Below, one piece after another: positions 1,005-29,243 of a DNA stretch of 64,000 nucleotides (position 1 is its first letter; every line of letters begins with the position of its first letter). The position numbers were made by a program, and so were the translations under genes. The notes below the pieces were generated by a model, which ran no database searches, had not been told where the DNA came from, and saw only the letters and a list, made by a program, of their open reading frames with translations. This stretch comes from Escherichia phage vB_EcoP_PAS59. The stretch lies in sequence record OQ921332.1. One strand, 5' to 3'.

Positions 1005-1955
1005 ATGTCAATCTCCGCATCGATTGCTCCGGTAACACCGGCAGAGGATTTCGGTGAGTCAGTGTTTAAAGGAAGGGCTTGCTTTGGTACTTTTAACTGT
1101 ATGCACATGTACTCTGTTACAGACATTAATGGCGACAGTCTTAGACAAACAAACCTTCGTGATAGAACTTCAGAAATTGAAGTTATTAACTTCTGGCCTC
1201 ACAATTTTTATGGCGTACCGTCTAAAGATATCGAAAGAGCTTTAGTTGAAGCAACAGACATTTTTAACTCAATGTCTTGCTATAAAGATATGTTCTCTGT
1301 CACTTCGGTGAACTCTATTGCCGTGAACCTTCGAAACCATCCAGCAGACAAGGTGTTTACTGGACTAATGACCATCCGTAGCTATTTGGATGGTGATTTT
1401 AATGGAATGGAGTTCCTTCAGGAAGGCGTACAAGACAAGGAAGAGTTGCTTAAGCGACAACGAATCGGTTTAGCTCTACGCCTAGCTGGTTTAAGTCGTA
1501 ACTTCTTTGGTCGCTGGTGTTATAGTAATGACGTAGACTCAACTGATGAGTCAGCAGCGACTTATTTTGATGGTGACATGAGTGCAATTGCATTTCTGCC
1601 ACTAATTTGCACCACTGATGAATTTTCTGAAAACGTATGGGTTCAGAATGTGTTCGGTGTTGATGATAACCGAGATGGTTATGTACGAAACCATAATGAT
1701 GGAGTTCTCCGTCGTATGGCACGTCGTCGTGACCAAGACCCTGACCATTATGAGAGTATGAGTGAGTGGTTGCGTCTCTGGTCAACTTGTGCAGGTCACA
1801 AGCGAGAAGTATTAGATCAGCGTATGGACAGAATTACTGTTCGCAGTTTTATTGAACGTCTGATGCAAGCAGTACCTTCCTCAATGACACCAGAAGAAGC
1901 TGGTGCCCGTGTTGTTTCCCTTTTTGATGAACTCGTGGAGTATTACAATGACTAA
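1005..1955 (+). CDS. hypothetical protein
   Basis: Long ORF packed between neighbours; no recognisable motif. Confidence 0.45.
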   Translation: MSISASIAPVTPAEDFGESVFKGRACFGTFNCMHMYSVTDINGDSLRQTNLRDRTSEIEVINFWPHNFYGVPSKDIERALVEATDIFNSMSCYKDMFSVTSVNSIAVNLRNHPADKVFTGLMTIRSYLDGDFNGMEFLQEGVQDKEELLKRQRIGLALRLAGLSRNFFGRWCYSNDVDSTDESAATYFDGDMSAIAFLPLICTTDEFSENVWVQNVFGVDDNRDGYVRNHNDGVLRRMARRRDQDPDHYESMSEWLRLWSTCAGHKREVLDQRMDRITVRSFIERLMQAVPSSMTPEEAGARVVSLFDELVEYYND

Positions 1956-2754
1956 GCGCGCTTTCCTTATTGGCTCTGACCCTGAAATGTTTGTTCGTAC
2001 TGCTTCCGGTATTATCACCTCTGTGGCTGGTAAGCTGGGCTGTTCTAAAGATAATAAAATTGATCTGGCTCCTGATGTTCGTCTTCAAGAAGACAACGTT
2101 CTGGCTGAATTCGATATTAACCCACAGAAAGGGTTTGAAGCGTTTGATGATAATATTCAGCGTGGTATTGATCTGACTAACAAAGTTCTCAATGAACGTG
2201 GCATGGAGGCAGCACTTGGGATTAGCTCTCATGTGTTCACTTCAGAAGAACTTGAATCATTCCACCCGTCAGCTTTTGTATTTGGCTGTACTCCTGATTT
2301 CAATGCCTTCACTGGACAAAAGAACCCTTCACCAGTCGCAACCGATAAGGGTTTGCGTACTGCTGGGGGTCATGTGCACCTTGGTGTCTCCGGGACTTTA
2401 GAGATTACTCGACAAACTCAAATGATGTTGGGTGTGTTATGTGATTACTTCCTGTCCTTGCCAGCTGTGATCATGGATAAAGACACTCGTCGTAAAGAGT
2501 TGTACGGAAAGGCTTCTGCCATTCGCTACAAAGATTACGGTATTGAATATCGTTCTCTTTCTAACTTCTGGATTGGTGATAAGTCCACTCGCAAGTTTGT
2601 TTACGAGCAAGTGGATAAGGTTGTTCAGGGTTGTGATATGGAAGTGTTGATGTCACTTCACTCTCGCCTTCCAATTGAAAAGCTTCATAACATCATCAAC
2701 AGCAACGATGTTAAAGAAGCGGATAAATTCTCCTCTAAACTCCAGATTGTATAA
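1948..2754 (+). CDS. GCS2/YbdK-like carboxylate-amine ligase (amidoligase)
   Basis: Start ATG at 1948 overlaps upstream stop (ATGACTAA); 'FLIGSDPEMFV' and 'GGHVHLGV' resemble the G-x-E-x-E strand and GxHVHvG motif of YbdK-type ligases. Confidence 0.5.
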   Translation: MTKRAFLIGSDPEMFVRTASGIITSVAGKLGCSKDNKIDLAPDVRLQEDNVLAEFDINPQKGFEAFDDNIQRGIDLTNKVLNERGMEAALGISSHVFTSEELESFHPSAFVFGCTPDFNAFTGQKNPSPVATDKGLRTAGGHVHLGVSGTLEITRQTQMMLGVLCDYFLSLPAVIMDKDTRRKELYGKASAIRYKDYGIEYRSLSNFWIGDKSTRKFVYEQVDKVVQGCDMEVLMSLHSRLPIEKLHNIINSNDVKEADKFSSKLQIV

Positions 2755-2763
2755 GGTGATATT

Positions 2764-3390
2764 GTGAGCTTGTTAAGAGATTTTCAACACTATTATTGTG
2801 GAACATGGATTGCTCAGCGATCACCTGATGGTAAAAACCTCCCTCTATATGTGCTTGATGTTCGTCAGCAAGGTAACTTTGATATCGACGACTACTCACA
2901 CGACGCTGAAAGGTCTTTAGTGTTTGAGGCGGAACGCTGGACTAAAAACTCTGAAGGTCAGTTTGAACGTCAGATTGTTAGTAATATCCCAGTGTTTGAT
3001 CACAGCCTCATTCTAGAGTCTCCAGATGTAGGATACCTTCAGCATGGTAATAACATGGTGAGCTGGACCCATATCAACCCTGTTCGTCAGCGAGCTAAAG
3101 GCTTGATGGGGAATAAACTTCGTGGTGCTGCACCTTCTCTCGGACGTTCGATTCCGGGTGATTTGGTGTACAACTTGTTTAATCCAGAGTTTGAAGGGTT
3201 GGTTACTCGTTTCATCTATATCAACCCTGTCGATGGAAAAGTGTATTACAAAGGGGCTTACGTTGGAAACGTGCTTCTTGAAGCTGGCTATGGCGACAAC
3301 GGTCGCCAATCTTTAAACCTTCTGGAGAAGTTCAAGCACATTTCTTCAGACCTGTCATCATATAATGTAGAGTTGGTGGAATCACTATGA
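2764..3390 (+). CDS. hypothetical protein (GTG start)
   Basis: ORF embedded in the amidoligase island; no motif recognised. Confidence 0.4.
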   Translation: MSLLRDFQHYYCGTWIAQRSPDGKNLPLYVLDVRQQGNFDIDDYSHDAERSLVFEAERWTKNSEGQFERQIVSNIPVFDHSLILESPDVGYLQHGNNMVSWTHINPVRQRAKGLMGNKLRGAAPSLGRSIPGDLVYNLFNPEFEGLVTRFIYINPVDGKVYYKGAYVGNVLLEAGYGDNGRQSLNLLEKFKHISSDLSSYNVELVESL

Positions 3391-4487
3391 CAACCGTAGC
3401 ACAAGTTTTTGGATACCGTAACCCTCGCTTATCTGAACCGCATCCAAGCATTGCTTTTCAGTGTGGTGTTGGTATTGAGTTAGAAGTCGAAGGTACTACT
3501 GACATTGACGTTGATATGTGGGTTTGTACTGAAGACGGCTCTCTTCGTGATGGTTGTGAGTTAGTGTGTTCACGACCTTACAACGGTGAAGAATTACTTC
3601 GTGCTATTAACAATCTGAGTGAAGCAGTACAGGATTCTGGAGCCGAGGGGACTTGGCGCTGCTCCACTCACGTTCATATGGATATGCGGGACGCTGATAG
3701 TAATATCCTTAAGAAAGTTATTCTTGGGTGGACGTTCTATGAAAAGATGATGTTCAAATGTTCTGGATATCATCGTTACCGTAGTAACTTCTGCCCAGCT
3801 TTTGCTGTTGTTCAAGCTCAAGTTATGAATGCTTCATCAGCGTTCAACCGAGATGGGGAAGATTTCTTCCGTACTCTTGTTAATAGCTGGGACAAGTATA
3901 CCTCCCTTAACCTGTTGCCTCTATCTCAGTTTGGTTCTGTTGAGTTTCGTATTTCAGAGCCGAAGTGGAAAAAGAGTCAGCTGCTAAATCTGGTCAATCG
4001 CTTCTTGGTTCTCAAGAAACTGGCTGTTGAATATGCAGATTTAGATAATGAAGCTTATGTTGAGAAGTTGAATGAGCTGCGCTTCGCTCCTATGATTCAA
4101 CATCTACCTCTAGACTATACTCCAAGAGATAGCGATCTCACTGAAGGGTATCGTCTTGCCCGTGATATTCTGTTCTGTCGTGAGCAATCTGTAACTTTGG
4201 TTGGTCGTGTTCGTGTGCAACAGACTGGCCCTGATGGTGAAGTCCTTATCAACTTACGTGACATGAATGACTTCTATGGTTTCTTGGGATATGTGCGCGG
4301 TAATGCCAACACTGTCTATGAAGAGATCATGACCTACTACACCCCTCAGATTGAAAGCACTCGAATCGCAACGGTTCGTGAAATTCGTCACATGTTTGCA
4401 TTGATGCGTGAATCAGGTAGCAGTGATAATAACATCACTGATTACATTCCAGACCATCTGGAAATGCAATTAGAACGACTGCTGTAA
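3387..4487 (+). CDS. amidoligase-like protein (glutamine-synthetase-like fold)
   Basis: 'GVGIELEVEG', 'DGSLRDGCELV', 'STHVHMD' resemble the amidoligase/GCS2 superfamily. Confidence 0.5.
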   Translation: MTTVAQVFGYRNPRLSEPHPSIAFQCGVGIELEVEGTTDIDVDMWVCTEDGSLRDGCELVCSRPYNGEELLRAINNLSEAVQDSGAEGTWRCSTHVHMDMRDADSNILKKVILGWTFYEKMMFKCSGYHRYRSNFCPAFAVVQAQVMNASSAFNRDGEDFFRTLVNSWDKYTSLNLLPLSQFGSVEFRISEPKWKKSQLLNLVNRFLVLKKLAVEYADLDNEAYVEKLNELRFAPMIQHLPLDYTPRDSDLTEGYRLARDILFCREQSVTLVGRVRVQQTGPDGEVLINLRDMNDFYGFLGYVRGNANTVYEEIMTYYTPQIESTRIATVREIRHMFALMRESGSSDNNITDYIPDHLEMQLERLL

Positions 4488-4564
4488 CACAATGGGCGCT
4501 CTGATAAAGGGCGCATTTAAAGGTTAATTAGATGAAAGGGTTTACCCTTCAGGTGGATTAGAAA

Positions 4565-6598
4565 ATTTGTGGTATCGTATTAGCTGGCGGCAACATGACC
4601 TCAACAGATTTGGATATTTTCAACCAACTTCTGTATGCTGGTGTTTTCCGTGGACAGCACTCAACTGGTGTGTTTGGTCAGCGTAAAGGTGAAAAGCAAG
4701 TCTTCTCTTATAAAGAAGCTCTTCCTTCTTATGCTTTTATGCTCCAGACAGAATATACAAATATTACCAAAGGGCTTACGAACTACGTAGTTCCTCCTTC
4801 GTGGATTGTTGGTCACAGCCGACATGCCACTCGTGGGGCTGTCAATGCTCGAAATGCTCACCCATTTACTCACGGGGATATTACTCTGGTTCATAATGGA
4901 ACCCTGTTAGATCAAGATCTCCTTCCTGACAGTAAGCGTTTCGAAGTTGATAGTGAAAACATCTGCCACTCAATTAATACCATTGGAGCAGCAGAGACTA
5001 TCCAAAAACTGGATGGTGCATTCACTTTGATTTGGCATGATGCTAAAGACAACACGCTTCACATTATCCGTAATGATGAGCGTCCTTTCCACCTAGCCCG
5101 TTGTGGTTTAGATTGGTTTGGGGCTTCTGAAGAAGCTATGCTTATGTGGATTTTAGAGCGTTCTAAATCCCACAAGAACCGTATCAATGACCACTTCGAA
5201 TGTAAAGTGGGAACTGAGTATATCTTTGATGTGTCTAACAGTCGTATGACTCTGGTTCAAGAGGTGGAGCACAAGCTTCCGGTTTTTACGATAACGAGTC
5301 GCTGGGGCGGCTATTACTCGAACTCCTCTCTATATCAGAACCGACAGACAAACAAATCAAGCAGCAGCACAAGCGACATTTACGGAAACAAAGACGACAA
5401 GCCCGGCGTGACAAGCGGAGACATTCGTCGTCGTAAAGCGATTGAAGACCAGAACAAACTGGCTGCCGATCGTGGTCTTCCTTATCGTCGTGATGGTCGT
5501 GTGGATATTATTCCTCACGAGTTCCATGCTTATAACAACACAGATCGTGGTAAGATGGTTGGTTACATCTACGACGATAAAGCCCAAGAGTATGTCGAAG
5601 GGGATGTTCACAACGTAGCCAAAGATGAATATCTTAAGGCTCTTGAAAACCCAAAGGTAGTATATCGCGGGACGATTGCTTGTATCTCCGAAGTGGACAG
5701 TATGATTCGCCTCGTACTAACTTCAGGGCTGTTTGTTGATGCTACAGATAAGGAGCCTCAAAGCACTACTGCTGATTTTGATGATGATATCCCTTTTGAT
5801 GCAGAGGACTCCTTCATCACTAAAAATGGTGTAGAAGTCACTCGTAAGTTCTGGGAATCTCACTCTCATGGAGATTGTGGTGGCTGTGATAAGCACATTG
5901 ACTGGAAAGATGCTCGTAAGGCTGTGTTTGCTTACCAAGCGTACTGGCATCCAGAATGCTTCGAAGCGTTGTCTAAAACCTCTGAAGAGGAAGAAGACGT
6001 ACCTTTGGGTGTATGTGCTGTCTGTGGTGAAGTCAAGACTGATTTCGAGTTTGACAACGAAATGAGTAAACTTCGTGGTGAAGATATTTGTTATATCTGC
6101 TCCAAAGAAATCAAAGATAAAGTAAAAAATGTTACTCTGTCTGAAGGTTATATTTGGACTAAAGCAGTAGACACAACTAATCCGCGTCGTCCTGAAGTGG
6201 CTGTTCGTGTTGATGAACGTATGCTTAGCCGTATGATTGTAATGGTCAGCTCAGCAAAACGTTCAGGGGATATTACACTCGCAGATGTTCCTAACTCATA
6301 TTTGGAAAAACGTGGTGGCGATACTTATGCCATTTCCGTTTACGGTCCAAAGAATGCCCCAAAGGAGGTACCCGCTGAGAAAGCGGAGACATTTCCAGAA
6401 AAATCAACCTCTCTCCGAAAAACAGTTGTCAGTTATGACGGACAACGAACAGCTGAGTTCACAAAAGCCCTCTGGACTTCAATTGGGTTTTGTGCAGTCT
6501 GTTATAAACAAATTCCGTGGCGTGATGCAGAAACTTGCTCACTAAACAAAGAAAATAGAGTGATCTGTAATTCAGATTACTGTAAAGGTAAACACTAA
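4565..6598 (+). CDS. class-II (Ntn) glutamine amidotransferase domain protein with Cys-rich C-terminal region; predicted AUU start
   Basis: In-frame 'I-CGIVLAGG...RGQHSTGV...HPF...LVHNGTL' begins right after an in-frame TAG; AGGTGG 8 nt upstream of ATT at 4565; C-terminal CxxC clusters. Confidence 0.6.
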   Translation: MCGIVLAGGNMTSTDLDIFNQLLYAGVFRGQHSTGVFGQRKGEKQVFSYKEALPSYAFMLQTEYTNITKGLTNYVVPPSWIVGHSRHATRGAVNARNAHPFTHGDITLVHNGTLLDQDLLPDSKRFEVDSENICHSINTIGAAETIQKLDGAFTLIWHDAKDNTLHIIRNDERPFHLARCGLDWFGASEEAMLMWILERSKSHKNRINDHFECKVGTEYIFDVSNSRMTLVQEVEHKLPVFTITSRWGGYYSNSSLYQNRQTNKSSSSTSDIYGNKDDKPGVTSGDIRRRKAIEDQNKLAADRGLPYRRDGRVDIIPHEFHAYNNTDRGKMVGYIYDDKAQEYVEGDVHNVAKDEYLKALENPKVVYRGTIACISEVDSMIRLVLTSGLFVDATDKEPQSTTADFDDDIPFDAEDSFITKNGVEVTRKFWESHSHGDCGGCDKHIDWKDARKAVFAYQAYWHPECFEALSKTSEEEEDVPLGVCAVCGEVKTDFEFDNEMSKLRGEDICYICSKEIKDKVKNVTLSEGYIWTKAVDTTNPRRPEVAVRVDERMLSRMIVMVSSAKRSGDITLADVPNSYLEKRGGDTYAISVYGPKNAPKEVPAEKAETFPEKSTSLRKTVVSYDGQRTAEFTKALWTSIGFCAVCYKQIPWRDAETCSLNKENRVICNSDYCKGKH

Positions 6599-6609
6599 GA
6601 GGTATAGTT

Positions 6610-6843
6610 ATGGAAGTTCGTAAACTGATGTTGGATAACGTGGTAACTACCCGTCGTATTCCGATGACAAGCACAGGATGTGATAACCTCCGAGCAATTC
6701 AGAAGTGGATGCAAGAAGGTATTGGGAAGCTGGTTGACTCTCCAGTAGAAATCCCTTTTCCAACCGTTATCAATAACGTGTTGGCTGACTATGTTAAAAT
6801 GAAGGGGATTAAAGTTGAGCCTCATGTCAAGCAAGGGAGCTAA
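6610..6843 (+). CDS. hypothetical small protein
   Basis: ORF only. Confidence 0.3.
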   Translation: MEVRKLMLDNVVTTRRIPMTSTGCDNLRAIQKWMQEGIGKLVDSPVEIPFPTVINNVLADYVKMKGIKVEPHVKQGS

Positions 6844-7045
6844 GCCTCACCTGACAATGCTGGAGTATCAACAACTCCGACTTCAACAACTGGTAACGGA
6901 GCAGCGAAAGCTGTATCCGTTTGCTTTTAACTTAATCGACTCTCCAAGTGATGCCCAAGAAGACGAAATGTTCGCCGAGTATTGGGCAATCGAAGCTAAA
7001 ATTCAATCCTGTCGTAACGAAATTCTTAAACTAAAAGGTATCTAA
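6815..7045 (+). CDS. hypothetical small protein (start uncertain)
   Basis: ORF only; overlaps the previous ORF. Confidence 0.3.
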   Translation: MSLMSSKGAKPHLTMLEYQQLRLQQLVTEQRKLYPFAFNLIDSPSDAQEDEMFAEYWAIEAKIQSCRNEILKLKGI

Positions 7046-7047
7046 AA

Positions 7048-8295
7048 ATGACTACTCGTATCCGTGTTCTTCCGTATGGCCCGTCTGATTCTGTTAACGC
7101 TCTGGTATCTGCTATCAGTGATACTATCCGTGATGAACGTATCAACGCTAACATAATGGGTCTTCTTTCAGAGAACAGTCGCTGGCGTTCTCGTGAGGAT
7201 GATGTGGTTGTGAACTACGGGAACCGTCGCTATCCTGAATCCTTCTTTGGTTCTGCAACTGTCCTTAACCGTACCGCAGCCTTACATATGGCAGCGAACA
7301 AACGTCGTGCTTTCAGCGTGATGGACCAAGCAGGTGTTAAAACTGTTGAGTATACAGATGTTCAAGAGATTGCTCAGGAGTGGTCAAACTCTGGCAACAT
7401 TGTGTATGAACGTCATGAACTGACTGGTCACTCTGGTTCGGGTATCGTTGTTGTTGAGCCTCGTGATTCAATTGGTCAAGCTGAACTGTACACCAAAGGT
7501 ATTCAAGGTCCACGTCGTGAATGGCGTGTCCATGTGTTCAAAGGTGTTATCACCTATGTTCAGAAGAAGATTCGTCGTAACGGCTATCGTGAAGACCCTA
7601 ACTATCGTGAAGATGTTCGTAACCATCACACTGGTTGGGTTTACTCAAGTTCCTTCACAGACGCTCCAAATGATGCATCTCTGATCAACGCAGTGAAGGC
7701 CGTTGAATCGATGGGTCTGGATTTTGGTGCAGTTGATATCATTACCAAAGGCCGAGAAGCATGGGTACTGGAAGTTAACACAGCACCGGGCCTGACTGGT
7801 ACAACTCTGGATATCTACCGTCACAACATCCTTGAGTTTGTTAAAGCTCAAAATCCTCTCTATACTCCTCAGTATAAAGTGGGTTACCAGACTCCTGTTG
7901 AAGCTCCAATCGAAGACGGAGATGGAGAGTTGGTAGATGACAGCGAAAGCGCTAATGATGAAAACTTTGCACTGGAAGGTCAGGTAGCACAGCCGGTTGA
8001 GTTGGTAGATGTAGTTCCTGAAGAGATGCAACTGGAAGGTCAGATGAATACTCAAACTATTCGTAATGCACCTACTGGTTACACTTTATCTCGTGGTTAT
8101 TGGATTGCAGATATCCGTCATGTCCATAACAACCTGCAACCGAATGCAATGTCTTCCAATGTCATTTTGTTCTGTGATGGTCGTAACTTCTACCGTAGTG
8201 GCTGGAACGTTCCGGTCAATCCAGTCCAGATTCATAACCCTCGCAAGTTAGAATCTGTCAATGTTGAAGGTAGCGAAGTAGCAGTAACTCTGTAA
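7048..8295 (+). CDS. ATP-grasp family ligase
   Basis: 'EWRVHVFKG...LDFGAVDIITKGREAWVLEVNTAPGL' matches the ATP-grasp C-terminal signature. Confidence 0.65.
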   Translation: MTTRIRVLPYGPSDSVNALVSAISDTIRDERINANIMGLLSENSRWRSREDDVVVNYGNRRYPESFFGSATVLNRTAALHMAANKRRAFSVMDQAGVKTVEYTDVQEIAQEWSNSGNIVYERHELTGHSGSGIVVVEPRDSIGQAELYTKGIQGPRREWRVHVFKGVITYVQKKIRRNGYREDPNYREDVRNHHTGWVYSSSFTDAPNDASLINAVKAVESMGLDFGAVDIITKGREAWVLEVNTAPGLTGTTLDIYRHNILEFVKAQNPLYTPQYKVGYQTPVEAPIEDGDGELVDDSESANDENFALEGQVAQPVELVDVVPEEMQLEGQMNTQTIRNAPTGYTLSRGYWIADIRHVHNNLQPNAMSSNVILFCDGRNFYRSGWNVPVNPVQIHNPRKLESVNVEGSEVAVTL

Positions 8296-8321
8296 TTAAA
8301 TTAAACAAAAAGGAATTTGTA

Positions 8322-8564
8322 ATGTTGTCTATCGAAGATTTGATCAGCCGTGGAATGACCGAAGAAAAAGAGCCTCTGATTGTAGGCTCTCGTAAAGCTA
8401 TCAACCAACTCTGTGAAGAGTTCGGTATCACAAATAAGAGAATGATTGGTAATCAGTTCTCTGCAATCATCACCTTCCTCAAACGAGGTGATAAATATTC
8501 AATGGAAAGTGCTGAGCGTATCATCGCAATTGCACAAGCAGATAAGGGAGTAACAAGTCTGTGA
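8322..8564 (+). CDS. hypothetical protein
   Basis: ORF only. Confidence 0.35.
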   Translation: MLSIEDLISRGMTEEKEPLIVGSRKAINQLCEEFGITNKRMIGNQFSAIITFLKRGDKYSMESAERIIAIAQADKGVTSL

Positions 8565-8746
8565 ATAAATATACAATCATGTTTCGTACAGTAACATCAG
8601 AAGGGAATATTCAATCTCTGGATATTCAAGCAGACCGCTTTGAATCACTTGGAACAAATGTCAATTTCTTCCGAGGCGCAGAGCTAGTAGGTACGTTCCA
8701 ATCTGATGTATTAACTGGTGTGATCAAACACTTCGAAGTAGAATAA
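8561..8746 (+). CDS. hypothetical protein
   Basis: ORF overlapping upstream stop. Confidence 0.3.
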   Translation: MNKYTIMFRTVTSEGNIQSLDIQADRFESLGTNVNFFRGAELVGTFQSDVLTGVIKHFEVE

Positions 8747-8812
8747 TTTGCTTTAGCCTCTTCGAAAGAGGAGGCTAGTTCGAATTTAACTGAAACACTA
8801 AAAGGTAATATA

Positions 8813-9244
8813 ATGTCTGATAAAGTACTAGTTGCAACTTACGGAAGCTTGAGAAAAGGTCAACACAACCACGCTATCAATGCTCGTGCAGGTGGTGTGT
8901 CTATTGGTGAAGGGTGGACAGTAAACAACTGTAACCTGTATCAGTATTGCACAGCATACTTCCCAAGTGTATCTTTGGAGCATGACAGCAATGGTAAGCC
9001 TGTTCGTGTAGAAGTCTTTGAAACAACCCAAGCTGGTCTGGAAGGTCCGTATGACGGTCTGGAAGGTCATCGTGGTAATGATAACCCATACACCTTTTAT
9101 AAGCGTACACTGATTCCAGTATTATTGGACAGCGGTGAAACTGTGGAAGCGTGGATTTATCACATCGACGAAGAACAAGATGTTCTGGTTGAATCGGGTG
9201 ACTGGACAGCATATCTGGCAGGTGAGAAGGATGACAGTAACTGA
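8813..9244 (+). CDS. gamma-glutamyl cyclotransferase / AIG2-like protein
   Basis: N-terminal 'VATYGSLRKG' (YGSL motif typical of the GGCT/AIG2 fold), about 140 aa. Confidence 0.5.
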   Translation: MSDKVLVATYGSLRKGQHNHAINARAGGVSIGEGWTVNNCNLYQYCTAYFPSVSLEHDSNGKPVRVEVFETTQAGLEGPYDGLEGHRGNDNPYTFYKRTLIPVLLDSGETVEAWIYHIDEEQDVLVESGDWTAYLAGEKDDSN

Positions 9245-11807: not shown

Positions 11808-13280
11808 ATGATTAAGATTCCATTATCTGAATTGAACCTTCAAGAAGGAGAAGCCCTCAGTGTAGGGCTTGACCTGATTCGTAATTTGATCAGAGATAAC
11901 GTAGTCCCTGATGGCATCTATCCTGTTATTGCAGGTGGTGCTATCCGTGATACGTTCTTTCAAAATAGAACTCCGAATGATGTTGATATCTTCCTAGTTC
12001 AAGGAGGATTACGTTGGAACGCTCGTCAGGAAAATAGCCCTGCTAACGTAGGTAATGCTGCACTTTTCCTTGACAACTTCTTATCTTGGACAGAAAGTAA
12101 AGGGCTTCAGGTTACATCTCGACTAATTCAGCCTGTTAACGGGACAACCTATGCTGAAGCGCTTTTCACTTTCCAAGAGATTCTGGAAATCGAGATTGAT
12201 CAAGTTAAAATCCAGATGATGATTAATCTACCTTTGGATATGGATACTTTAAGCCGTCGCTTCCCTATGATCTGTCAAGGGTTTATGACTCTTGGTAATC
12301 TGTATGTGTCAAACGAAGGTTTGTTTGCAATGTCATACACTCGTGACATTCCTGTGGTGTCCAGTCGTGAAATGAAGTATGTTCACAAGAAGTGGCCTGA
12401 AGCAACTGTTGCAGTTTATAGCAGTTCTACCGAATATATGCACCTTGCAATGGGAGCTTTCGGTGAGCCAGAAGTTCACCTGATTAGTGATTTAGTTGGA
12501 CCTATGGCTGGTGTAAATTTATATCAGAATCAGCGTCGTCATTATACCCTGAAGATGATGGAAACTACATTAAACATTCCTCAGGAAAGGGGTCGTAGTT
12601 ATCTGGACGAGGAAGTTAACCTACAGACAGAATGGTCTAGTGGATTAACCACTATAGGTGCTGAAGCAATTACACGACCTTGGACTCCGGGAACTAACAG
12701 ACGAGATCTTCAAGCTTTTAATGAAGAAACTTCTCGAACTGTTCGAGGAGGTGTTGTAGGGTATAACGTACAACCTCATGAAAGACCTCGTGATACTTTC
12801 ACTGGTAGTTTTGGTAGTGCACACTCTTCTGGAATGGATACTCGTACATGGCATGTCCAAGGAGGAACTGCTCGTCCTATTCCCTCTCCGTCAATGGATG
12901 ATTTGCAGCGTTCTCGTCGTTCATGGGAAACAGTAAGCTCTGTTGTTCAGGGTCTACGTGCTAGTGATATTGAACGTGTAGAAGTTGGTGATTTGCCAAC
13001 CTCTACAGAAGATCGAGTATCAGCTATAGCGGCTCGTGAAGCTGCTCATATTGGTTTTGCATCATTAGCTAATGACGCTAACGAAGCTCCTCGACCTGTT
13101 GGTCGTCGTAATGGTCTAGCTCACTCTGACACTGCACTTGGTGCAGAACTACGAGCAGCAGCTCGTGAGCTATCTGGTGAGCTTCACAACAACCTGGCAG
13201 GTGTTACACTATCTCGTGAAACAGCTCGTAATATGATTAATAATTTGGCATCATCTGTACAAGGAAACAGAAACTCATGA
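11808..13280 (+). CDS. nucleotidyltransferase-like protein (Pol-beta superfamily head motif) with low-complexity C-terminal half
   Basis: 'IAGGAIRDTFFQNRTPNDVDIF' matches the GGxVRD...DxD motif of CCA-adding/poly(A) polymerase heads. Confidence 0.4.
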   Translation: MIKIPLSELNLQEGEALSVGLDLIRNLIRDNVVPDGIYPVIAGGAIRDTFFQNRTPNDVDIFLVQGGLRWNARQENSPANVGNAALFLDNFLSWTESKGLQVTSRLIQPVNGTTYAEALFTFQEILEIEIDQVKIQMMINLPLDMDTLSRRFPMICQGFMTLGNLYVSNEGLFAMSYTRDIPVVSSREMKYVHKKWPEATVAVYSSSTEYMHLAMGAFGEPEVHLISDLVGPMAGVNLYQNQRRHYTLKMMETTLNIPQERGRSYLDEEVNLQTEWSSGLTTIGAEAITRPWTPGTNRRDLQAFNEETSRTVRGGVVGYNVQPHERPRDTFTGSFGSAHSSGMDTRTWHVQGGTARPIPSPSMDDLQRSRRSWETVSSVVQGLRASDIERVEVGDLPTSTEDRVSAIAAREAAHIGFASLANDANEAPRPVGRRNGLAHSDTALGAELRAAARELSGELHNNLAGVTLSRETARNMINNLASSVQGNRNS

Positions 13281-13810
13281 GTCTTTTAGGTTCTCAAGAA
13301 TTACACAGCGTTATTGATAATGGCTTTTTAGATGCGGAGCATAAATATGTTAACGCTGCTAGTGTGGATATCCGTATTGGTGATACTATCCTTGTTGAAG
13401 AGCAGGCTGATGGTATTGTTGACATTGATGCTAAAGAAAACCTCAAGTGGAAAGAAGTAAAAATCCCTGAAGATGGTATCGTTATCACTCCGGGACAGTT
13501 CTTCTTAGCTCACTCAATGGAAGAGTTTAACCTTCCAGACAATATTTCAAGTCTGTTTGTACTCCGCTCCTCAATGGCTCGTTGTGGTTTAAACCATCTC
13601 CATGCTGGTTGGGCTGATGCAGGGTTTAATAACAGTAAGCTGACCTTTGAGTTCCATAACGTTACTCACAATCACAGCTTACGAGTTCGTGCTGGGATGC
13701 GTGTCGGTCAAATGGTTATGTTTGAACACTCTCACGCTGGTGATGATTCCTATGCAGTGAAGGGTCGTTATAACAACTCCGATGGGGTTGTTGCTTCTAA
13801 AGGTGTATAA
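13277..13810 (+). CDS. dcd: dCTP deaminase (dUTPase superfamily)
   Basis: 'ASVDIRIGD', 'ITPGQFFLAHSMEEFNLP', 'LRSSMARCGL', 'WADAGFNNSKLTFEFHN' track the Dcd signature. Confidence 0.7.
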   Translation: MSLLGSQELHSVIDNGFLDAEHKYVNAASVDIRIGDTILVEEQADGIVDIDAKENLKWKEVKIPEDGIVITPGQFFLAHSMEEFNLPDNISSLFVLRSSMARCGLNHLHAGWADAGFNNSKLTFEFHNVTHNHSLRVRAGMRVGQMVMFEHSHAGDDSYAVKGRYNNSDGVVASKGV

Positions 13811-16110: not shown

Positions 16111-16602
16111 ATGAATAATATTGACCCGTCAATAAAAGAAGCTCTTGATTACGACCCTTTGACTGGAGATTTCCGATGGGTTAAAACTTATGGAAAAGGA
16201 CACAAAGGGTCTATAGCTGGTTCTGTAAATACCAATGGGTATTTGAGAATCGTTTATAAAGGTGCTAGATACTACGCTCATCGACTTGCTTACTGGTGGG
16301 ACACTGGATTGCTTCCTGAAGAAGTAGATCACATAGACCGCAACAGGATAAACAACAAAAGAGAGAATCTTAGGGGGACTACTAGATCAGGAAATGGCCT
16401 AAACAAAGTAGCTCAGAGTAATAATTTATCAACCGGAGTGATTGGAGTGACTGTCCATAGAAGGAAAAGTGGCTCTATTGCTTACCGGGCGGTATTTAAA
16501 TCTAAGCACATAGGACTCTTCTCAACCATAGAAGAAGCCTCTAGGGAATATAATAAAGTCAAGGAGACTTACATAAATGACAATCAAAGCTTCATTAATT
16601 GA
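16111..16602 (+). CDS. HNH homing endonuclease with AP2-like DNA-binding domain
   Basis: 'LDYDPLTGDFRW...AHRLAYWW...DHIDRNRINNKRENLR' plus 'GVIGVTVHRRKSGSIAYRA'. Confidence 0.7.
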   Translation: MNNIDPSIKEALDYDPLTGDFRWVKTYGKGHKGSIAGSVNTNGYLRIVYKGARYYAHRLAYWWDTGLLPEEVDHIDRNRINNKRENLRGTTRSGNGLNKVAQSNNLSTGVIGVTVHRRKSGSIAYRAVFKSKHIGLFSTIEEASREYNKVKETYINDNQSFIN

Positions 16603-17224
16603 TAACTTCGGTTCAGATCTTACAGTAGTCAATGCTGCTCGTGTAACTATGGGGGTAGAAAGGGAAGAATTAAAAGAAAGTGACACTCGTCTAATAAATT
16701 TTCTAGCTCGGGAACGGCACGTAAGTCCTTTTCGTCACCCACAAGCGAGCTTCAGATGCGAAGCTCCTATAGCAATTGCACGACAGTTACAGAAGCATCA
16801 AGTTGGTTTTTCTTGGAACGAGATGAGTCGTAGATATAAAGATGGAGCAGTGGATATTTTCATACCTAAAGAAATCTTCTCCCGTCCAGATGATCTACAT
16901 TCTGGTTCTGGAATACTTCTTGAAGGGGAGGAAGAGGCAAAAGCTTTAGCTTTGTTTAACTCTGCGTACGAGGCATCTCTTGCTAGTTATGACGAATTGA
17001 TTAAGTTCGTAGCTCCTGAACAAGCTAGATTTGTTTTACCTCAAGGTATGGTAACTACTTGGTACTGGACTGGTAGCTTGTATGGCTGGTTTGAATTGTG
17101 TCGTCAACGACTATCATCCCATGCTCAATATGAAGTTCGACTATTTGCTCAGTCATTAGATGAAGAGATGGCTAAACTCTATCCAATCTCATGGGCAGCT
17201 TTGAAGAAAACTTTGGAGAGTTAA
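16577..17224 (+). CDS. thyX: ThyX-family (flavin-dependent thymidylate synthase-like) protein with variant signature
   Basis: 'HVSPFRH...ARQLQKHQVGFSWNEMSRRY' parallels ThyX 'SPFEH...RHR-x7-S..RY', but RHR is replaced by KHQ. Confidence 0.55.
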   Translation: MTIKASLIDNFGSDLTVVNAARVTMGVEREELKESDTRLINFLARERHVSPFRHPQASFRCEAPIAIARQLQKHQVGFSWNEMSRRYKDGAVDIFIPKEIFSRPDDLHSGSGILLEGEEEAKALALFNSAYEASLASYDELIKFVAPEQARFVLPQGMVTTWYWTGSLYGWFELCRQRLSSHAQYEVRLFAQSLDEEMAKLYPISWAALKKTLES

Positions 17225-20088: not shown

Positions 20089-21783
20089 GTGATGGATAAC
20101 CCTGATAAGTTACCTTTCATAACGGAGATGACAGTCGCTGATATAATCTCAAAACAGGCGAAGCATGGAGTCAACTTCAACAGAAGAAACGCTCGGTGGT
20201 TTGTTCATCTTCTCAAAGAGATTATTGTCAATATTGATAAAGAACTGATTCCTCTCCTCCCCAAAATGCGGGTGGATGGTTCAACTTATTCTAAACCTTT
20301 TAAGAAATCAGGTGCTTTACAGAAGTGGCCTCAGCTCTATTGCGATAGGGTTGGTCTTAAAAGAGAAGATATCGGTGGGGCGTTTACTTGCGTTGAGTAT
20401 GTAGATTTTGACCCATCAAAAGATGCACGTATTAAAGAAGCCTTGATGGATGAAGGTTTTATACCTCCAGAGTGGAATTATTCTAAGAAACCTTGGAATA
20501 CTTTTGAAATTCGTAAAGCTATGAAGAAGTATGGTACATACTCTGCATGGTATTCTGCTTGGATTCGAGGTAACGCTAAAGAGAAACAGACAGCAGAGAT
20601 GATAGATGCTGATATCCGAAGGTTTTTGGATAAGCACTTCCGTTATCACACTGTCAATTATATGAAAGCCTATGTCAGCGGTTTAGGTCTTAACCCTAAC
20701 AGGAAGAAGCCTGTAACCTTTGATGAAATCAAAAAAGCTTTGGCTACATCAAACAAGTGGCCTACAGCCCCTACAAACCTTGAGGAGACTCTTGAAGAGG
20801 GGCTTGGGGGTGAACTAGGGGGTGTAGGAAGTTTGCTTAAGAGACGCGTTGTAGCGGCTCACAGGCTAGGTTTGATTAGCGGGCTTATCGACAAGGAACG
20901 TAAAGATGGTAAACTGTCCGCCGAAGCTAATAGCTGCGCTACTCCGACATTTCGTTTTAAACATCGCATTGTTGTTAATATTCCTTCTCGCGGTTTGTTT
21001 GGTCACGAGTGCCGCAGTCTTTTTCAATCTGACTATTCCTCAGACGATAGTCATAACCATCCTTTCATCATTACCAACCATATCCCTGATGGGTGTTACG
21101 TACGAAAGGGTACTAACATTATCTACGAAATGGGAAAACCGGGCAAGAAAGACAAACCAATAGGTGCTTATAAATTTTATGTACCTGCTGGTCGTGAAGT
21201 CTTCTTAGGTTATGATGGCTCTGGTCTTGAGCTGAGGATGCTTGCTCATTACCTTATCAAAGAGTGTCGTGAGATGCTCGCTGAAGCAGAGCGGGAAAAC
21301 AACCCAGCTAAGAAACGGGAAGCTGAACGCGGTCTAGCTTCTGCTGTTATGTACAGAGATATTCTTTTAGAAGGGGATATTCACTCACATAACCAAAAAC
21401 TTGCTGGCCTTCCTACTCGTGATAATGCTAAAACGTTTATCTACGCATTCAACTACGGAGCTGGTGACGCTAAGTTAGGAAGCATCGTAGGTGGTGGCTC
21501 TGATGAAGGGGCTGTCATGAGGGCAAGATTCTTAGCAGAGAATCCTTGTATTGCAATTCTTATTGAACGTATGACAGAGAAAGCACAAAGTGGATACATC
21601 TACGGTGTGGATGGACGTCGTATTACAATGAGGAGGGATGCAACTGGAAAGGTTATGGTTCATAAAGCCTTAAACACCCTCTTACAGAGCGCTGGGGCGA
21701 TTGTTATGAAGTATGCAATGCTATTCCTTAATAAATGGATTGAGCGTGATGGTGTTCGTTGTGCGAAGGTTATTGACATGCAT
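20089..21783 (+). CDS. DNA polymerase (family A, T7-like), polymerase domain exon 1
   Basis: Motif A 'YDGSGLELRMLAHY', motif B 'RDNAKTFIYAFNYGAGDAKLG', 'ALNTLLQSAGA' as in T7 gp5; frame runs into intron (stop at 21811). Confidence 0.8.
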
Positions 21784-22390
21784 AAACTTCATTGTGCATG
21801 TAAAAGTTGGTGAACTCGGTGAAACCCGACCATTAAGTTGAGGGCAATACCGAGCTAAGCTATTAGGAGGTGATATGGCTAAGAAAGATCTAGTGTTAGA
21901 AACTACTGACACAGGATGTATCATCCCTATCTCACACAAACTTAATAAAGATGGTTACTTCAGAAAGGTAATAGATGGCAAATGGGTCATGTATCACCGA
22001 TACGTCATGGAAGAAAAGTTTGGAAAGATTCCTGATGGGTTTGAAGTAAACCATAAATGCAAGAACAGAGCTTGCTGTAACACAGACCACCTAGAGATTC
22101 TATGGGGGAGTGCTCATGCAATAGAATCCAATACAGGTAGAAACAGAGAAAGACAGGAAGCTGCTAAAGAATTCTGGCTTAATAATGAATGTACCGGTGT
22201 TGCTCTTGCGGAAAGATTTGGTGTGAGCTTTGGAATCGCTTGTAGATGGATTCGAAAGTGGAAAGTGTAGAGACTATCCTTTGGGAGTAGGGGGTTAACA
22301 GGGAAACCCTCGAAGCGCCAACAACAGCAAATTAGCTATGCTGTTATGATATAGTCCGATACCCGAAGTAATTTGGGAATAACATAAATG
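21784..22390 (+). mobile_element. group I intron (IA-like) carrying an HNH endonuclease ORF
   Basis: 5' exon ends in U; P1 pairing of AUGCAU (21778-83) with GUGCAU (21794-99); R-like 'AGAGACUAUC' (about 22266-75) and S-like 'AUGAUAUAGUCC' (about 22346-58); terminal G at 22390. Confidence 0.6.
21875..22270 (+). CDS. intron-encoded HNH homing endonuclease
   Basis: 'EVNHKCKNRACCNTDHLEILWGS'; AGGAGG before ATG. Confidence 0.7.
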   Translation: MAKKDLVLETTDTGCIIPISHKLNKDGYFRKVIDGKWVMYHRYVMEEKFGKIPDGFEVNHKCKNRACCNTDHLEILWGSAHAIESNTGRNRERQEAAKEFWLNNECTGVALAERFGVSFGIACRWIRKWKV

Positions 22391-22543
22391 GATGAAGGTC
22401 AGTTCACTGTACATCGTGATGATGTTAACAAACTTCGTACCCTCACTGAAGAGTGTGTTCGTAAAGCAGGAGAGTACCTCAAGATGGAATGTCCTCTGGC
22501 ATCTGATTGCAAAATTGGATTAAACTGGAATCACACCCACTAA
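22391..22543 (+). CDS. DNA polymerase exon 2 (motif C and C-terminus)
   Basis: Splicing gives '...VIDMH|DEGQF...' restoring HDE; ends 'KIGLNWNHTH' like family-A polymerase C-termini. Confidence 0.6.
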   Translation, partial: DEGQFTVHRDDVNKLRTLTEECVRKAGEYLKMECPLASDCKIGLNWNHTH

Positions 22544-27996: not shown

Positions 27997-28647
27997 ATGA
28001 AGAAAAAGACAACACCCACACGCTATCGTATTCATGGCATACCTATTAAATACTACCCAACCTTCGATGAATTCTATCGAGAGAATTGGAAAGTTGTGCA
28101 TAAGTATTTTATGTACGACATTAAAGATTATCACGAAGCAGAGGATGTTGCTCAGGAAGTGTTACTGAACTCTTGGCGTTTTGTATTTGCAAAGCAAGAA
28201 GAACTGCTGCTTACCGATGAAAAAGATATTGAACACATGACTTATCGTGTGAAGAATATCATCTGGTCGATTCGTTCTAATCGACAGACAGTTGGAGACA
28301 GACGTATCTATTCTATTCCAGAGGCTGATATGTTTAGACCTCCCGAGATGAATTCATGGGAAAGTCCTTTAGAGATTGCTATGGATAAGCATGATTCTAC
28401 TGGAGACCCATTCTTGGAATCTAGAATCTTTTTCTTCTTCCAAGACCTAAGTGATATTATGGAAAACCGCAAGATGGCAAGTATGTTCTCAATGCTCTTC
28501 CTCGGTATTCCTCATGATCACATCCAACAAGAGCTGGGAATTTCACACGGAACCTTCTATCGCCGTTATTCGGAGAATCGTGATCTGTATGAAGCGGTAG
28601 TAGAGAAGCACTTTGATAAAGAAGATCTTCAAGGGATGATTCAATAA
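27997..28647 (+). CDS. phage-encoded sigma-70 family (ECF-like) sigma factor
   Basis: Region-2-like '[17 protein letters not shown]' and C-terminal HTH-like '[22 protein letters not shown]'. Confidence 0.5.
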
Positions 28648-29243
28648 TGAGTAAACCTTTAGTAGTAATCCTAAATGGACCTCCGGGTTGTGGTAAAGAT
28701 ACAATCGCTAATGCTTGGTTAGAGAAGACAGCTGGTAACACTGAGTTTAGACCGCATGTAAAGGCTTTTAAGGAGCCTATGTATCGGGTGGCTGCTGCTG
28801 CATTAGGTCTCCCTCTTTATGAGTTCATGGAGCTGTACAACGACCGTGAGTGGAAAGAACTTGTCCGTCCTGAATGGGGAGGTAAGTCAGTTCGAGATTT
28901 GATGATTGCAACTAGCGAGAATTATCTGAAGCCTATGTTTGGTGAGACCTGCATGGGTAAACTTGCTGTTAGCAGTATCCAACAACATATCCCATCACAG
29001 AATGATGTTATCGTCTTCTCTGATGGTGGTTTTAGAGCAGAAGTTGAAGAACTAGAGAGACACTTCCATGTTCGAGTAGTTCAGGTTCTCCGCGATGGCT
29101 GCTCCTTTGAAGGAGACTCCCGTTCTTATATTGAAGGAACAAACCTACCAACCTACCTCCTCTTTAATGACCGTTCTGTAGAAGAGGCAGTTGAGGATTT
29201 AGAGTGGATTATTGAAGGGACACGGAGAGATCTCTATGTCTGA
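28647..29243 (+). CDS. P-loop nucleotide kinase-like protein
   Basis: Walker A 'LNGPPGCGKDT' near N-terminus, about 200 aa. Confidence 0.5.
   Translation: MSKPLVVILNGPPGCGKDTIANAWLEKTAGNTEFRPHVKAFKEPMYRVAAAALGLPLYEFMELYNDREWKELVRPEWGGKSVRDLMIATSENYLKPMFGETCMGKLAVSSIQQHIPSQNDVIVFSDGGFRAEVEELERHFHVRVVQVLRDGCSFEGDSRSYIEGTNLPTYLLFNDRSVEEAVEDLEWIIEGTRRDLYV

Follow-up and report, generated by a model that had tools for sequence, protein, structure and literature searches.

Flavin-dependent thymidylate synthases (ThyX) are identified by the signature RHRX7S (Myllykallio 2002, as quoted in a citing paper). Arg78, Arg80, Ser88, and Arg90 of ThyX are reported to form direct hydrogen bonds to dUMP, and Arg78 and Arg80 have been described as conserved in the family. 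In the Mycobacterium tuberculosis enzyme, the first arginine of the motif (Arg95) is likewise among the dUMP contacts. The ThyX active site is assembled from three subunits, and in an inhibitor complex of the PBCV-1 enzyme, residue 89 has its side chain in the pocket for the dUMP phosphate, so a residue at this position can reach the phosphate. No biochemically or structurally characterized ThyX with a K-H-x triad and an S-R-R-Y loop was found in the PDB or in the literature searched, and, PolB aside, all PDB chains matching the motif peptide of the phage enzyme described here have the canonical RHR.

The window analyzed here is a stretch of 64,000 nucleotides from Escherichia phage vB_EcoP_PAS59 (sequence record OQ921332.1). 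The phage is a Kuravirus; over 8 kb, the source region shares 95.5% identity with Escherichia phage OliverMaurmann_Bas86, and its identity to many other phiEco32-like podoviruses of the Gordonclarkvirinae (Kuravirus, Suseptimavirus) is 90–95%. Among the matches listed, every annotated Gordonclarkvirinae relative has thyX in the matching stretch. Bas86_0055 and the vB_EcoP_PAS59 protein annotated as 'thymidylate synthase' match the ThyX protein of the window at 100% identity. The features discussed are collected in Table 1.

Table 1 Positions of thyX, its active-site segments, and neighboring genes in the window
Feature	Position	Strand	Basis
thyX, predicted flavin-dependent thymidylate synthase, 215 aa, K-H-x...S-R-R-Y subclass	16577..17224	+	ATG-started ORF, PF02511, TIGR02170
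HVSPFRH segment, residues 48–54 (His48 = T. maritima His53, His54 = His59)	16718..16738	+	Alignments
Variant signature K73-H74-Q75-VGFSWNEM-S84-R85-R86-Y87	16793..16837	+	phmmer alignments
E148-Q-A-R151 (T. maritima E144...R147)	17018..17029	+	Columns invariant across both ThyX classes
R178...H182-A-Q184-Y-E186 (T. maritima R174, H178, Q180, E182)	17108..17134	+	Alignments
HNH homing-endonuclease ORF, 26-nt overlap with thyX start	16111..16602	+	HNH_3 E = 2.9e-10; HNH in Bas86
dCTP deaminase (dCTP to dUTP)	13277..13810	+	Pfam DCD E = 1.1e-34
Deoxynucleoside monophosphate kinase (dTMP to dTDP)	28647..29243	+	phrog_139 E = 5.3e-41; Bas86 annotation agrees
phiEco32-type cluster: COOH-NH2 ligase, amidoligase, glutamine amidotransferase, ATP-grasp enzyme, gamma-glutamyl cyclotransferase	1.9–9.2 kb

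Family assignment and structure prediction gave the same picture. The Pfam family Thy1 (PF02511) spans residues 7–203 of the protein (E = 4.7e-43), the score against the NCBIfam thyX equivalog TIGR02170 is above the cutoff (126.1 bits vs 87.9), and PHROGs assigns the ORF to phrog_85, 'thymidylate synthase'. A phmmer search against PDB sequences matched Thermus thermophilus Thy1 (6j61, E = 3e-30) and Thermotoga maritima ThyX (E = 3e-22), and the phage protein is similar in length and 28–31% identical to these two enzymes (TM0449, 1O26 and 8REO; 6J61). The AlphaFold2 model was very confident (pLDDT 96.6, pTM 0.90), and Foldseek superposed it on the dUMP complexes of T. maritima ThyX (1O26, 8REO) with a TM-score of 0.85 and on T. 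thermophilus ThyX with 0.80. The best 50 structural matches listed were all ThyX, which speaks against a ThyA fold. A ThyA-family nucleotide hydroxymethylase of the T4 gp42/SPO1 gp29 type was also rejected, since PF02511 was the only significant Pfam match and Thymidylat_synt was not found.

The ORF is thus predicted to encode a working thymidylate synthase that converts dUMP to dTMP, to which we assign a probability of about 0.85. The product would be a catalytically competent homotetrameric FAD enzyme in which flavin N5 relays the methylene group of CH2-H4folate to C5 of dUMP, the adduct then being reduced to dTMP with NADPH. The fold, family membership, conservation, distribution, covariation, and orthologue context reported here are observations; the catalytic activity, the roles of Lys73 and Arg85, and the flux through the pathway we infer.

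A sequence-only reading of this DNA had recognized the ThyX layout with its HVSPFRH segment, which the Pfam match confirmed, and had pointed out that the RHR-x7-S signature reads KHQ. The motif it used agrees with the published one, as quoted in the citing paper. ThyX residues 72–87 are QKHQVGFSWNEMSRRY, and phmmer places K73-H74-Q75 exactly under R78-H79-R80 of both T. maritima (1kq4/1o26) and T. thermophilus (6j61) ThyX. No RHR tripeptide occurs elsewhere in the 215 residues. The counterpart in T. maritima is R78-H79-R80-IASYNEL-S88-G89-R90-Y91. The spacing of seven residues did not hold for the phage protein: its spacer between triad and serine (VGFSWNEM) has eight residues, one more than IASYNEL. 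The residue after the serine is arginine (S-R-R-Y), whereas T. maritima and T. thermophilus have glycine (S-G-R-Y). In place of the literal RHR-x7-S, the phage enzyme therefore has KHQ-x8-S, with the histidine and serine kept and the first basic residue of the triad conservatively replaced (R to K).

Apart from this motif, the active site is intact. Among the aligned ligand-binding and catalytic residues of T. maritima ThyX, only R78K, R80Q, and G89R differ in the phage enzyme; the equivalents of H53, R74, Q75, H79, N85, E86, S88, R90, Y91, E144, R147, R174, H178, Q180, and E182 are all kept. At the T. maritima positions that were tested, the phage residues are H48, Q70, E82, S84, R86, Y87, E148, R151, R178, H182, Q184, and E186. 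A joint alignment of canonical and variant sequences has invariant columns at T. maritima H53, E86, S88, R90, and Y91, as well as at E144, R147, R174, Q180, and E182, and within the subclass alignment His48 is nearly invariant and His54 invariant. Differences from T. maritima ThyX outside these positions include PEQAR for REVAR and VLPQG for VLPLN. T. maritima R174, variants of which (R174A, R174K) are present among PDB entries, is the arginine that polarizes the uracil.

These residues bear on the suggestion of the sequence-only reading that the substrate or the chemistry might differ. An enzyme acting on another nucleotide, either dCMP (as a methylase or hydroxymethylase) or UMP, is conceivable in that two residues reported to hydrogen-bond dUMP are changed. 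PolB of Streptomyces cacaoi (4P5A/4P5B), a ThyX-like UMP/dUMP C5-methylase of polyoxin biosynthesis, provides a precedent for altered substrate scope within the family and is a detectable homologue (match over query residues 3–208, E = 4.4e-20). However, PolB matched the phage ThyX less well than the true thymidylate synthases did, and against the motif peptide its spacing was one residue shorter and its score lower than that of T. maritima ThyX. According to the literature, it is the dUMP phosphate that the altered residues face, rather than the base or the 2' position, and the S-x-R-Y loop is conserved together with the uracil-holding R174 equivalent. The retention of this arginine (R178) argues against a cytosine substrate. 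In addition, the phage has a dCTP deaminase of its own that shifts the pool in favor of dU nucleotides, and the motif recurs in chromosomal genes of probable housekeeping function (see below). The motif thus lends the suggestion no support, and we regard a different nucleotide substrate as highly improbable.

The KHQ substitution is shared by close and distant homologues. KHQ-x8-S-x-RY recurs in 119 of the top 120 homologues from 5.8 billion proteins (53–100% identity), and its retention down to 53% identity places the KHQ string, as judged by these alignments, far beyond chance. A HMMER scan of 1.84 billion cluster representatives retrieved 6,846 clusters with E <= 1e-3, 311 of them with E <= 1e-30; the best 150 (50%-identity clustering, 37–56% identity to the query) were inspected. 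Most of these representatives, and nearly every parsed one, had K or R, then H (sometimes S, Y, or T), then a variable residue (Q, T, K, V, H, and others), followed by eight residues and S-R-R-Y. KHQ was the commonest triad (60 of 150), followed by RHT, KHK, RHQ, KHT, and others. Judging from these sequences, the KHQ substitution is the signature of a large ThyX subclass and not a peculiarity of phage PAS59. The marks of the subclass are a first arginine usually replaced by lysine, the loss of the third arginine, one extra loop residue, and an arginine after the serine. We take the RHR-x7-S definition to be too narrow, rather than the phage protein to lie outside the ThyX family, because the same deviation recurs in hundreds of clusters, including chromosomal bacterial thyX genes.

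Both types of motif occur in cultured phages. Breeniome, OhMyWard, phiYS40, BL5, P60, and L5 (gp48) have the canonical RHR with S-G/Q-R-Y. A non-RHR triad with SRRY was found in Bp7 (Chaseviridae), Aeromonas phage 2L372D, roseophage CRP-1, Rheinheimera phage Barba15S, the N4-like Klebsiella phage K17alpha62, Streptomyces phage LukeCage, and Bacillus phage Blastoid. Mycobacteriophage L5 gp48, which has been cited among phage thyX genes 'shown to be functional' and adjoins ribonucleotide reductase genes, is phage-encoded like the PAS59 enzyme; unlike the latter, it carries the canonical RHR-x7-S-Q-R-Y, and therefore does not validate the KHQ class. Clavibacter phage CMP1, also cited for a functional thyX, was set aside, as no thymidylate synthase is annotated in its 25–58.6 kb half. 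Borrelia thyX was considered as an experimentally tested spirochaete example and found uninformative for the KHQ class, as the Borrelia hermsii gene has the canonical RHR and BBA76 of Borrelia burgdorferi has RHR with S-G-C-Y.

A decayed or inactive ThyX that is kept for a non-catalytic role would also have a broken canonical motif, and BBA76 of B. burgdorferi shows that thyX genes lacking conserved residues exist. However, the motif and 57 other columns were conserved at 80% or above among homologues of 37–78% identity, and the phage ThyX departs from these columns only at S24T and in the K-Q-G-S loop. This loop, which reads H-S-G-S in the phage enzyme and its nearest relatives (the Kuravirus clade), is also absent from T. 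maritima ThyX, a true thymidylate synthase. Inteins tend to lodge in functionally critical sites, and in three relatives they sit inside the signature motif itself. Together with the very confident structural model, these observations make loss of activity extremely improbable.

The changes within the motif are correlated. Among non-redundant sequences in which the third position of the triad is not arginine, an arginine flanks the serine in 181 of 189 (directly before the serine in three), compared with only 11 of 132 sequences with RHR (p = 3e-64, Fisher's exact test, a value inflated by shared ancestry). In a sample of 120 canonical clusters, the residue after the serine was G in 56, Q in 34, L in 12, A in 6, and R in 6. 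One clade has the arginine on the other flank of the serine (NER-S-MRY vs NEM-S-RRY). This covariation of third-arginine loss with the gain of an arginine beside the serine suggests that the phosphate-binding charge has been relocated to the latter. In the phage enzyme, Lys73 would keep the contact of Arg78 with the dUMP phosphate, and Arg85 would provide, from the opposite flank of the loop, the guanidinium group that Arg80 contributes in canonical enzymes. The subclass is an obvious target for studies of dUMP-phosphate recognition or for the design of ThyX inhibitors.

KHQ-type thyX genes were also found in bacterial chromosomes. One genome per species was scanned with motif-derived patterns from 15 sequences; these patterns contain KHQ, so the scan is silent on the frequency of other variants in cells. 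It yielded 49 loci, of which about two thirds were phage-like (short co-directional ORFs) and were excluded from the cellular count. The phage-like loci look like prophages or mis-binned phage contigs. All parsed loci, including those of four bacterial lineages, read KHQ-x8-SRRY. In Spirochaetia, two loci (L008 and L016, the latter in the complete 1.79 Mb chromosome OZ251568.1) share 11 genes; thyX is flanked on one side by genes for citrate synthase, an aldo-keto reductase, and an SDR, and on the other by dihydroorotate dehydrogenase (pyrD) and an OMP decarboxylase-phosphoribosyltransferase fusion (pyrF-pyrE). Four Nitrospinaceae loci share 9–13 genes, among them AcrB/HlyD efflux genes, IspH, and MlaA. 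In five syntenic loci of Chloroflexota/Dehalococcoidia, thyX is accompanied by the four genes of a 2-oxoacid dehydrogenase and by an MFS transporter; 4–5 genes are common to the whole class, and the two most similar loci share up to 14. Three loci in Poribacteria share genes including an enolase-superfamily gene and an aminotransferase.

The chromosomal enzymes of these four lineages are 41–47% identical to the phage ThyX and have the identical signature ARQLxKHQVGxxWNExSRRY. They lie in cellular neighborhoods and keep the K-Q-G-S loop, in contrast to the H-S-G-S of the Kuravirus clade. The divergence of ThyX across the four-lineage loci resembles that of the flanking genes, and the ThyX proteins of L016, L013, and L011 score 129–150 bits against TIGR02170 (cutoff 87.9). 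On plasmids of staphylococci and enterococci, a related thyX with K-Y-V...SRRY immediately follows the DHFR gene dfrE, a pairing that mirrors the known dfrA-thyE arrangement. By its syntenic, non-phage context, KHQ-type ThyX would be a housekeeping gene in the four lineages, and the chromosomal and plasmid contexts fit an ordinary thymidylate synthase and not a DNA-hypermodification enzyme. The other possibility raised by the sequence-only reading, that the enzyme tolerates the substitution, is supported by the subclass signature, the retention of the other aligned residues, the TIGR02170 score, and the syntenic chromosomal genes.

On the available sequences, the phage ThyX is a further member of a known family and belongs to a widespread subclass with a non-textbook motif, which spans phages of many hosts and some bacterial chromosomes. 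The 'universal' signature RHR-x7-S is therefore not universal, as a large subclass uses [K/R]-[H/S]-x, eight residues, and S-R-R-Y. Its abundance may be underestimated where surveys select for the classical motif; one such filter is described in the paper that quotes RHRX7S.

In the phage, the most economical reading of thyX is that of a dTTP-supply module. The sequence-only reading had placed a dCTP deaminase in the neighborhood, and this assignment was upheld by the Pfam DCD match and by a score above the TIGR02274 equivalog cutoff (106.7 bits vs 92.8). The deoxynucleoside monophosphate kinase ORF had no Pfam or NCBIfam match and was identified through PHROGs. The phage dCTP deaminase would convert dCTP to dUTP, from which host Dut, or the deaminase itself if bifunctional, would produce dUMP; ThyX would then form dTMP, and the kinase dTDP. 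The GC content of the window is 42.2%, and that of the host is ~51%. Such a pathway would raise the supply of dTTP for a 42% GC genome in a host of higher GC content. Other phages with a KHQ-type thyX also have nucleotide-metabolism genes nearby (a dUTPase in Bp7 and ribonucleotide reductase genes in 2L372D). In all likelihood, the phage ThyX is an ordinary flavin-dependent thymidylate synthase making dTMP for phage DNA.

This reading has consequences for the restriction resistance of the group. In its passages on the subject, the BASEL-2 paper reports a remarkable resistance of the Gordonclarkvirinae to restriction-modification systems, although no DNA-modification pathway is known in them; the authors suspect a covalent DNA modification, and thyX is not discussed in these passages. 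They speculate on dU-DNA in the Gordonclarkvirinae (PMC11990801), based on the dCTP deaminase and the nucleotidyltransferase. The conserved thyX with its intact active-site residues argues against plain dU-DNA, although the presence of thymine is not thereby proven. The dU-DNA phages PBS1 and PBS2 are not known to synthesize thymidylate; they exclude dTTP and use dUTP. The cause of the resistance is thus more likely to lie elsewhere than in plain dU-DNA.

The resistance would be accounted for if the enzyme were a neofunctionalized flavin-dependent C5-transferase, for example a dUMP hydroxymethylase in which the exocyclic-methylene intermediate is given up to water rather than reduced, with the product entering DNA and perhaps being further modified. 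According to the literature, dUMP carries an exocyclic methylene at an intermediate stage of ThyX catalysis, which makes the chemistry of a hydroxymethylating derivative conceivable. The Kuravirus clade has left the K-Q-G-S loop consensus, and the set of dCTP deaminase, thymidylate synthase homologue, and deoxynucleoside monophosphate kinase resembles that of phages with 5-hmdU. However, the loop is missing from T. maritima ThyX as well, the aligned ligand-binding and catalytic residues including His48 are otherwise intact, and the annotation of the corresponding region in the closely related Bas86 genome includes no gene for a 5-hmdU kinase or of the transferase type. Moreover, KHQ...SRRY is common to the probable housekeeping ThyX of four lineages and to many unrelated phages, and for this reason cannot mark a special chemistry. 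We therefore consider such a C5-transferase very unlikely. The specific form in which the Gordonclarkvirinae ThyX skips the reduction and releases C5-hydroxymethyl or otherwise substituted dUMP, which the deoxynucleoside monophosphate kinase would pass on for incorporation into DNA, is likewise very unlikely. If true, it would be the first ThyX-family enzyme feeding DNA hypermodification and would explain the restriction resistance.

The sequence-only reading had also connected thyX with unexplained amide-bond enzymes nearby. These belong to the known phiEco32-type amidoligase set, 7–15 kb upstream of thyX, and the connection was rejected, as KHQ-type ThyX occurs in other phages and in chromosomes without such neighbors within about 9 kb. 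The amidoligase cluster is followed by genes for a primase-helicase, an exonuclease, and a nucleotidyltransferase, then by the dCTP deaminase, a ferritin-like protein, and a thioredoxin. From the HNH endonuclease onward, the order is thyX, an Nlig-Ia domain protein, PhoH, and DNA polymerase, with the deoxynucleoside monophosphate kinase further on. The HNH ORF upstream of thyX is part of the genomic context and not of the enzyme.

The thyX alleles of the Gordonclarkvirinae were far more diverged than the DNA on either side of them. ThyX amino-acid identity was 72-80% in ECBP2, CHD5UKE1, and EK5, while the flanks of thyX kept 93-95% nucleotide identity in ECBP2 and most close relatives. An HNH endonuclease ORF overlaps the start of thyX. 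The pattern suggests that thyX alleles have been replaced, or co-converted, in the neighbourhood of a homing site.

Features of the window around thyX and in the interrupted DNA polymerase gene
Feature	Coordinates	Evidence or remark
phiEco32-type cluster	1903-9244	COOH-NH2 ligase (PF14395), Amidoligase_2, class-II glutamine amidotransferase, RimK-like ATP-grasp enzyme, gamma-glutamyl cyclotransferase
'Nucleotidyltransferase', 490 aa	11808-13280	phrog_12715, E = 4e-163
HNH endonuclease ORF	16111-16602	26-nt overlap with start of thyX (16577-17224)
Stand-alone ORF, 106 aa	17556-17876	PF22745, E = 1e-33
DNA polymerase residues 1-564	20092-21783	Mapped against Bas86
HNH endonuclease ORF in polymerase insert	21875-22270	phrog_6254
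Group I intron match (Rfam), following the HNH ORF	22271-22378	30.9 bits, E = 1e-5; below threshold
DNA polymerase residues 565-614	22391-22540	Mapped against Bas86

The K-Q-G-S loop motif is kept in most ThyX proteins of both classes. The corresponding position of the window ThyX (residues 108-111; 16898-16909) reads H-S-G-S, and the motif is similarly replaced in its closest relatives, namely Kuravirus, Salmonella phage SeKF_80, and Plateaulakevirus. Three distant ThyX homologues (proteins P0121, P0124, and P0264), 352-480 aa long, carry an intein-like insertion. These insertions sit exactly inside the ThyX signature loop, after the conserved Gly and before the (S/C)WNE segment, with ends and junctions reading ...GNGFVVHN|SWNE or |CWNE.

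Outside the window, a dfrE (DHFR)-thyX operon was found on a mobilisable resistance plasmid of S. aureus (NZ_CP113048.1; locus L065, 3471-4669), and an E. faecium plasmid gave the same thyX match. The plasmid thyX is of a non-RHR type (K-Y-V...SRRY), with a loop longer by 12 residues. The ThyX of B. burgdorferi B31 lp54 (BBA76; locus L063, 109-906) reads RHR...S-G-C-Y, in which Cys replaces the equivalent of Arg90 (T. maritima numbering). It also lacks the H-A-Q-x-E segment, which is present in B. hermsii ThyX. BBA76 may be a decayed enzyme.

In the loci examined, the phiEco32-type amidoligase cluster showed no co-distribution with KHQ-type thyX. The 'nucleotidyltransferase', which had no match in Pfam or NCBIfam, reads GGAIRD...DVDIF at its N-terminus, and this string looks like the head motif of CCA-adding enzymes or poly(A) polymerases. 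The authors of the BASEL-2 paper (PMC11990801) suspected the nucleotidyltransferase of a DNA-modification role. Of an NAD-dependent DNA ligase, the 106-aa ORF comprises nothing beyond the Ia domain, which lies at the N-terminus and binds NAD+; the counterpart of this ORF in the close relative Escherichia phage OliverMaurmann_Bas86 is annotated as 'DNA ligase'.

With Bas86 as the reference, the DNA polymerase gene of the window (20089-22540) was found to be interrupted by an insert of 607 bp. The intron match in the insert fell short of the Rfam gathering score of 50 bits, but a mobile group I intron is the probable identity of the insert.
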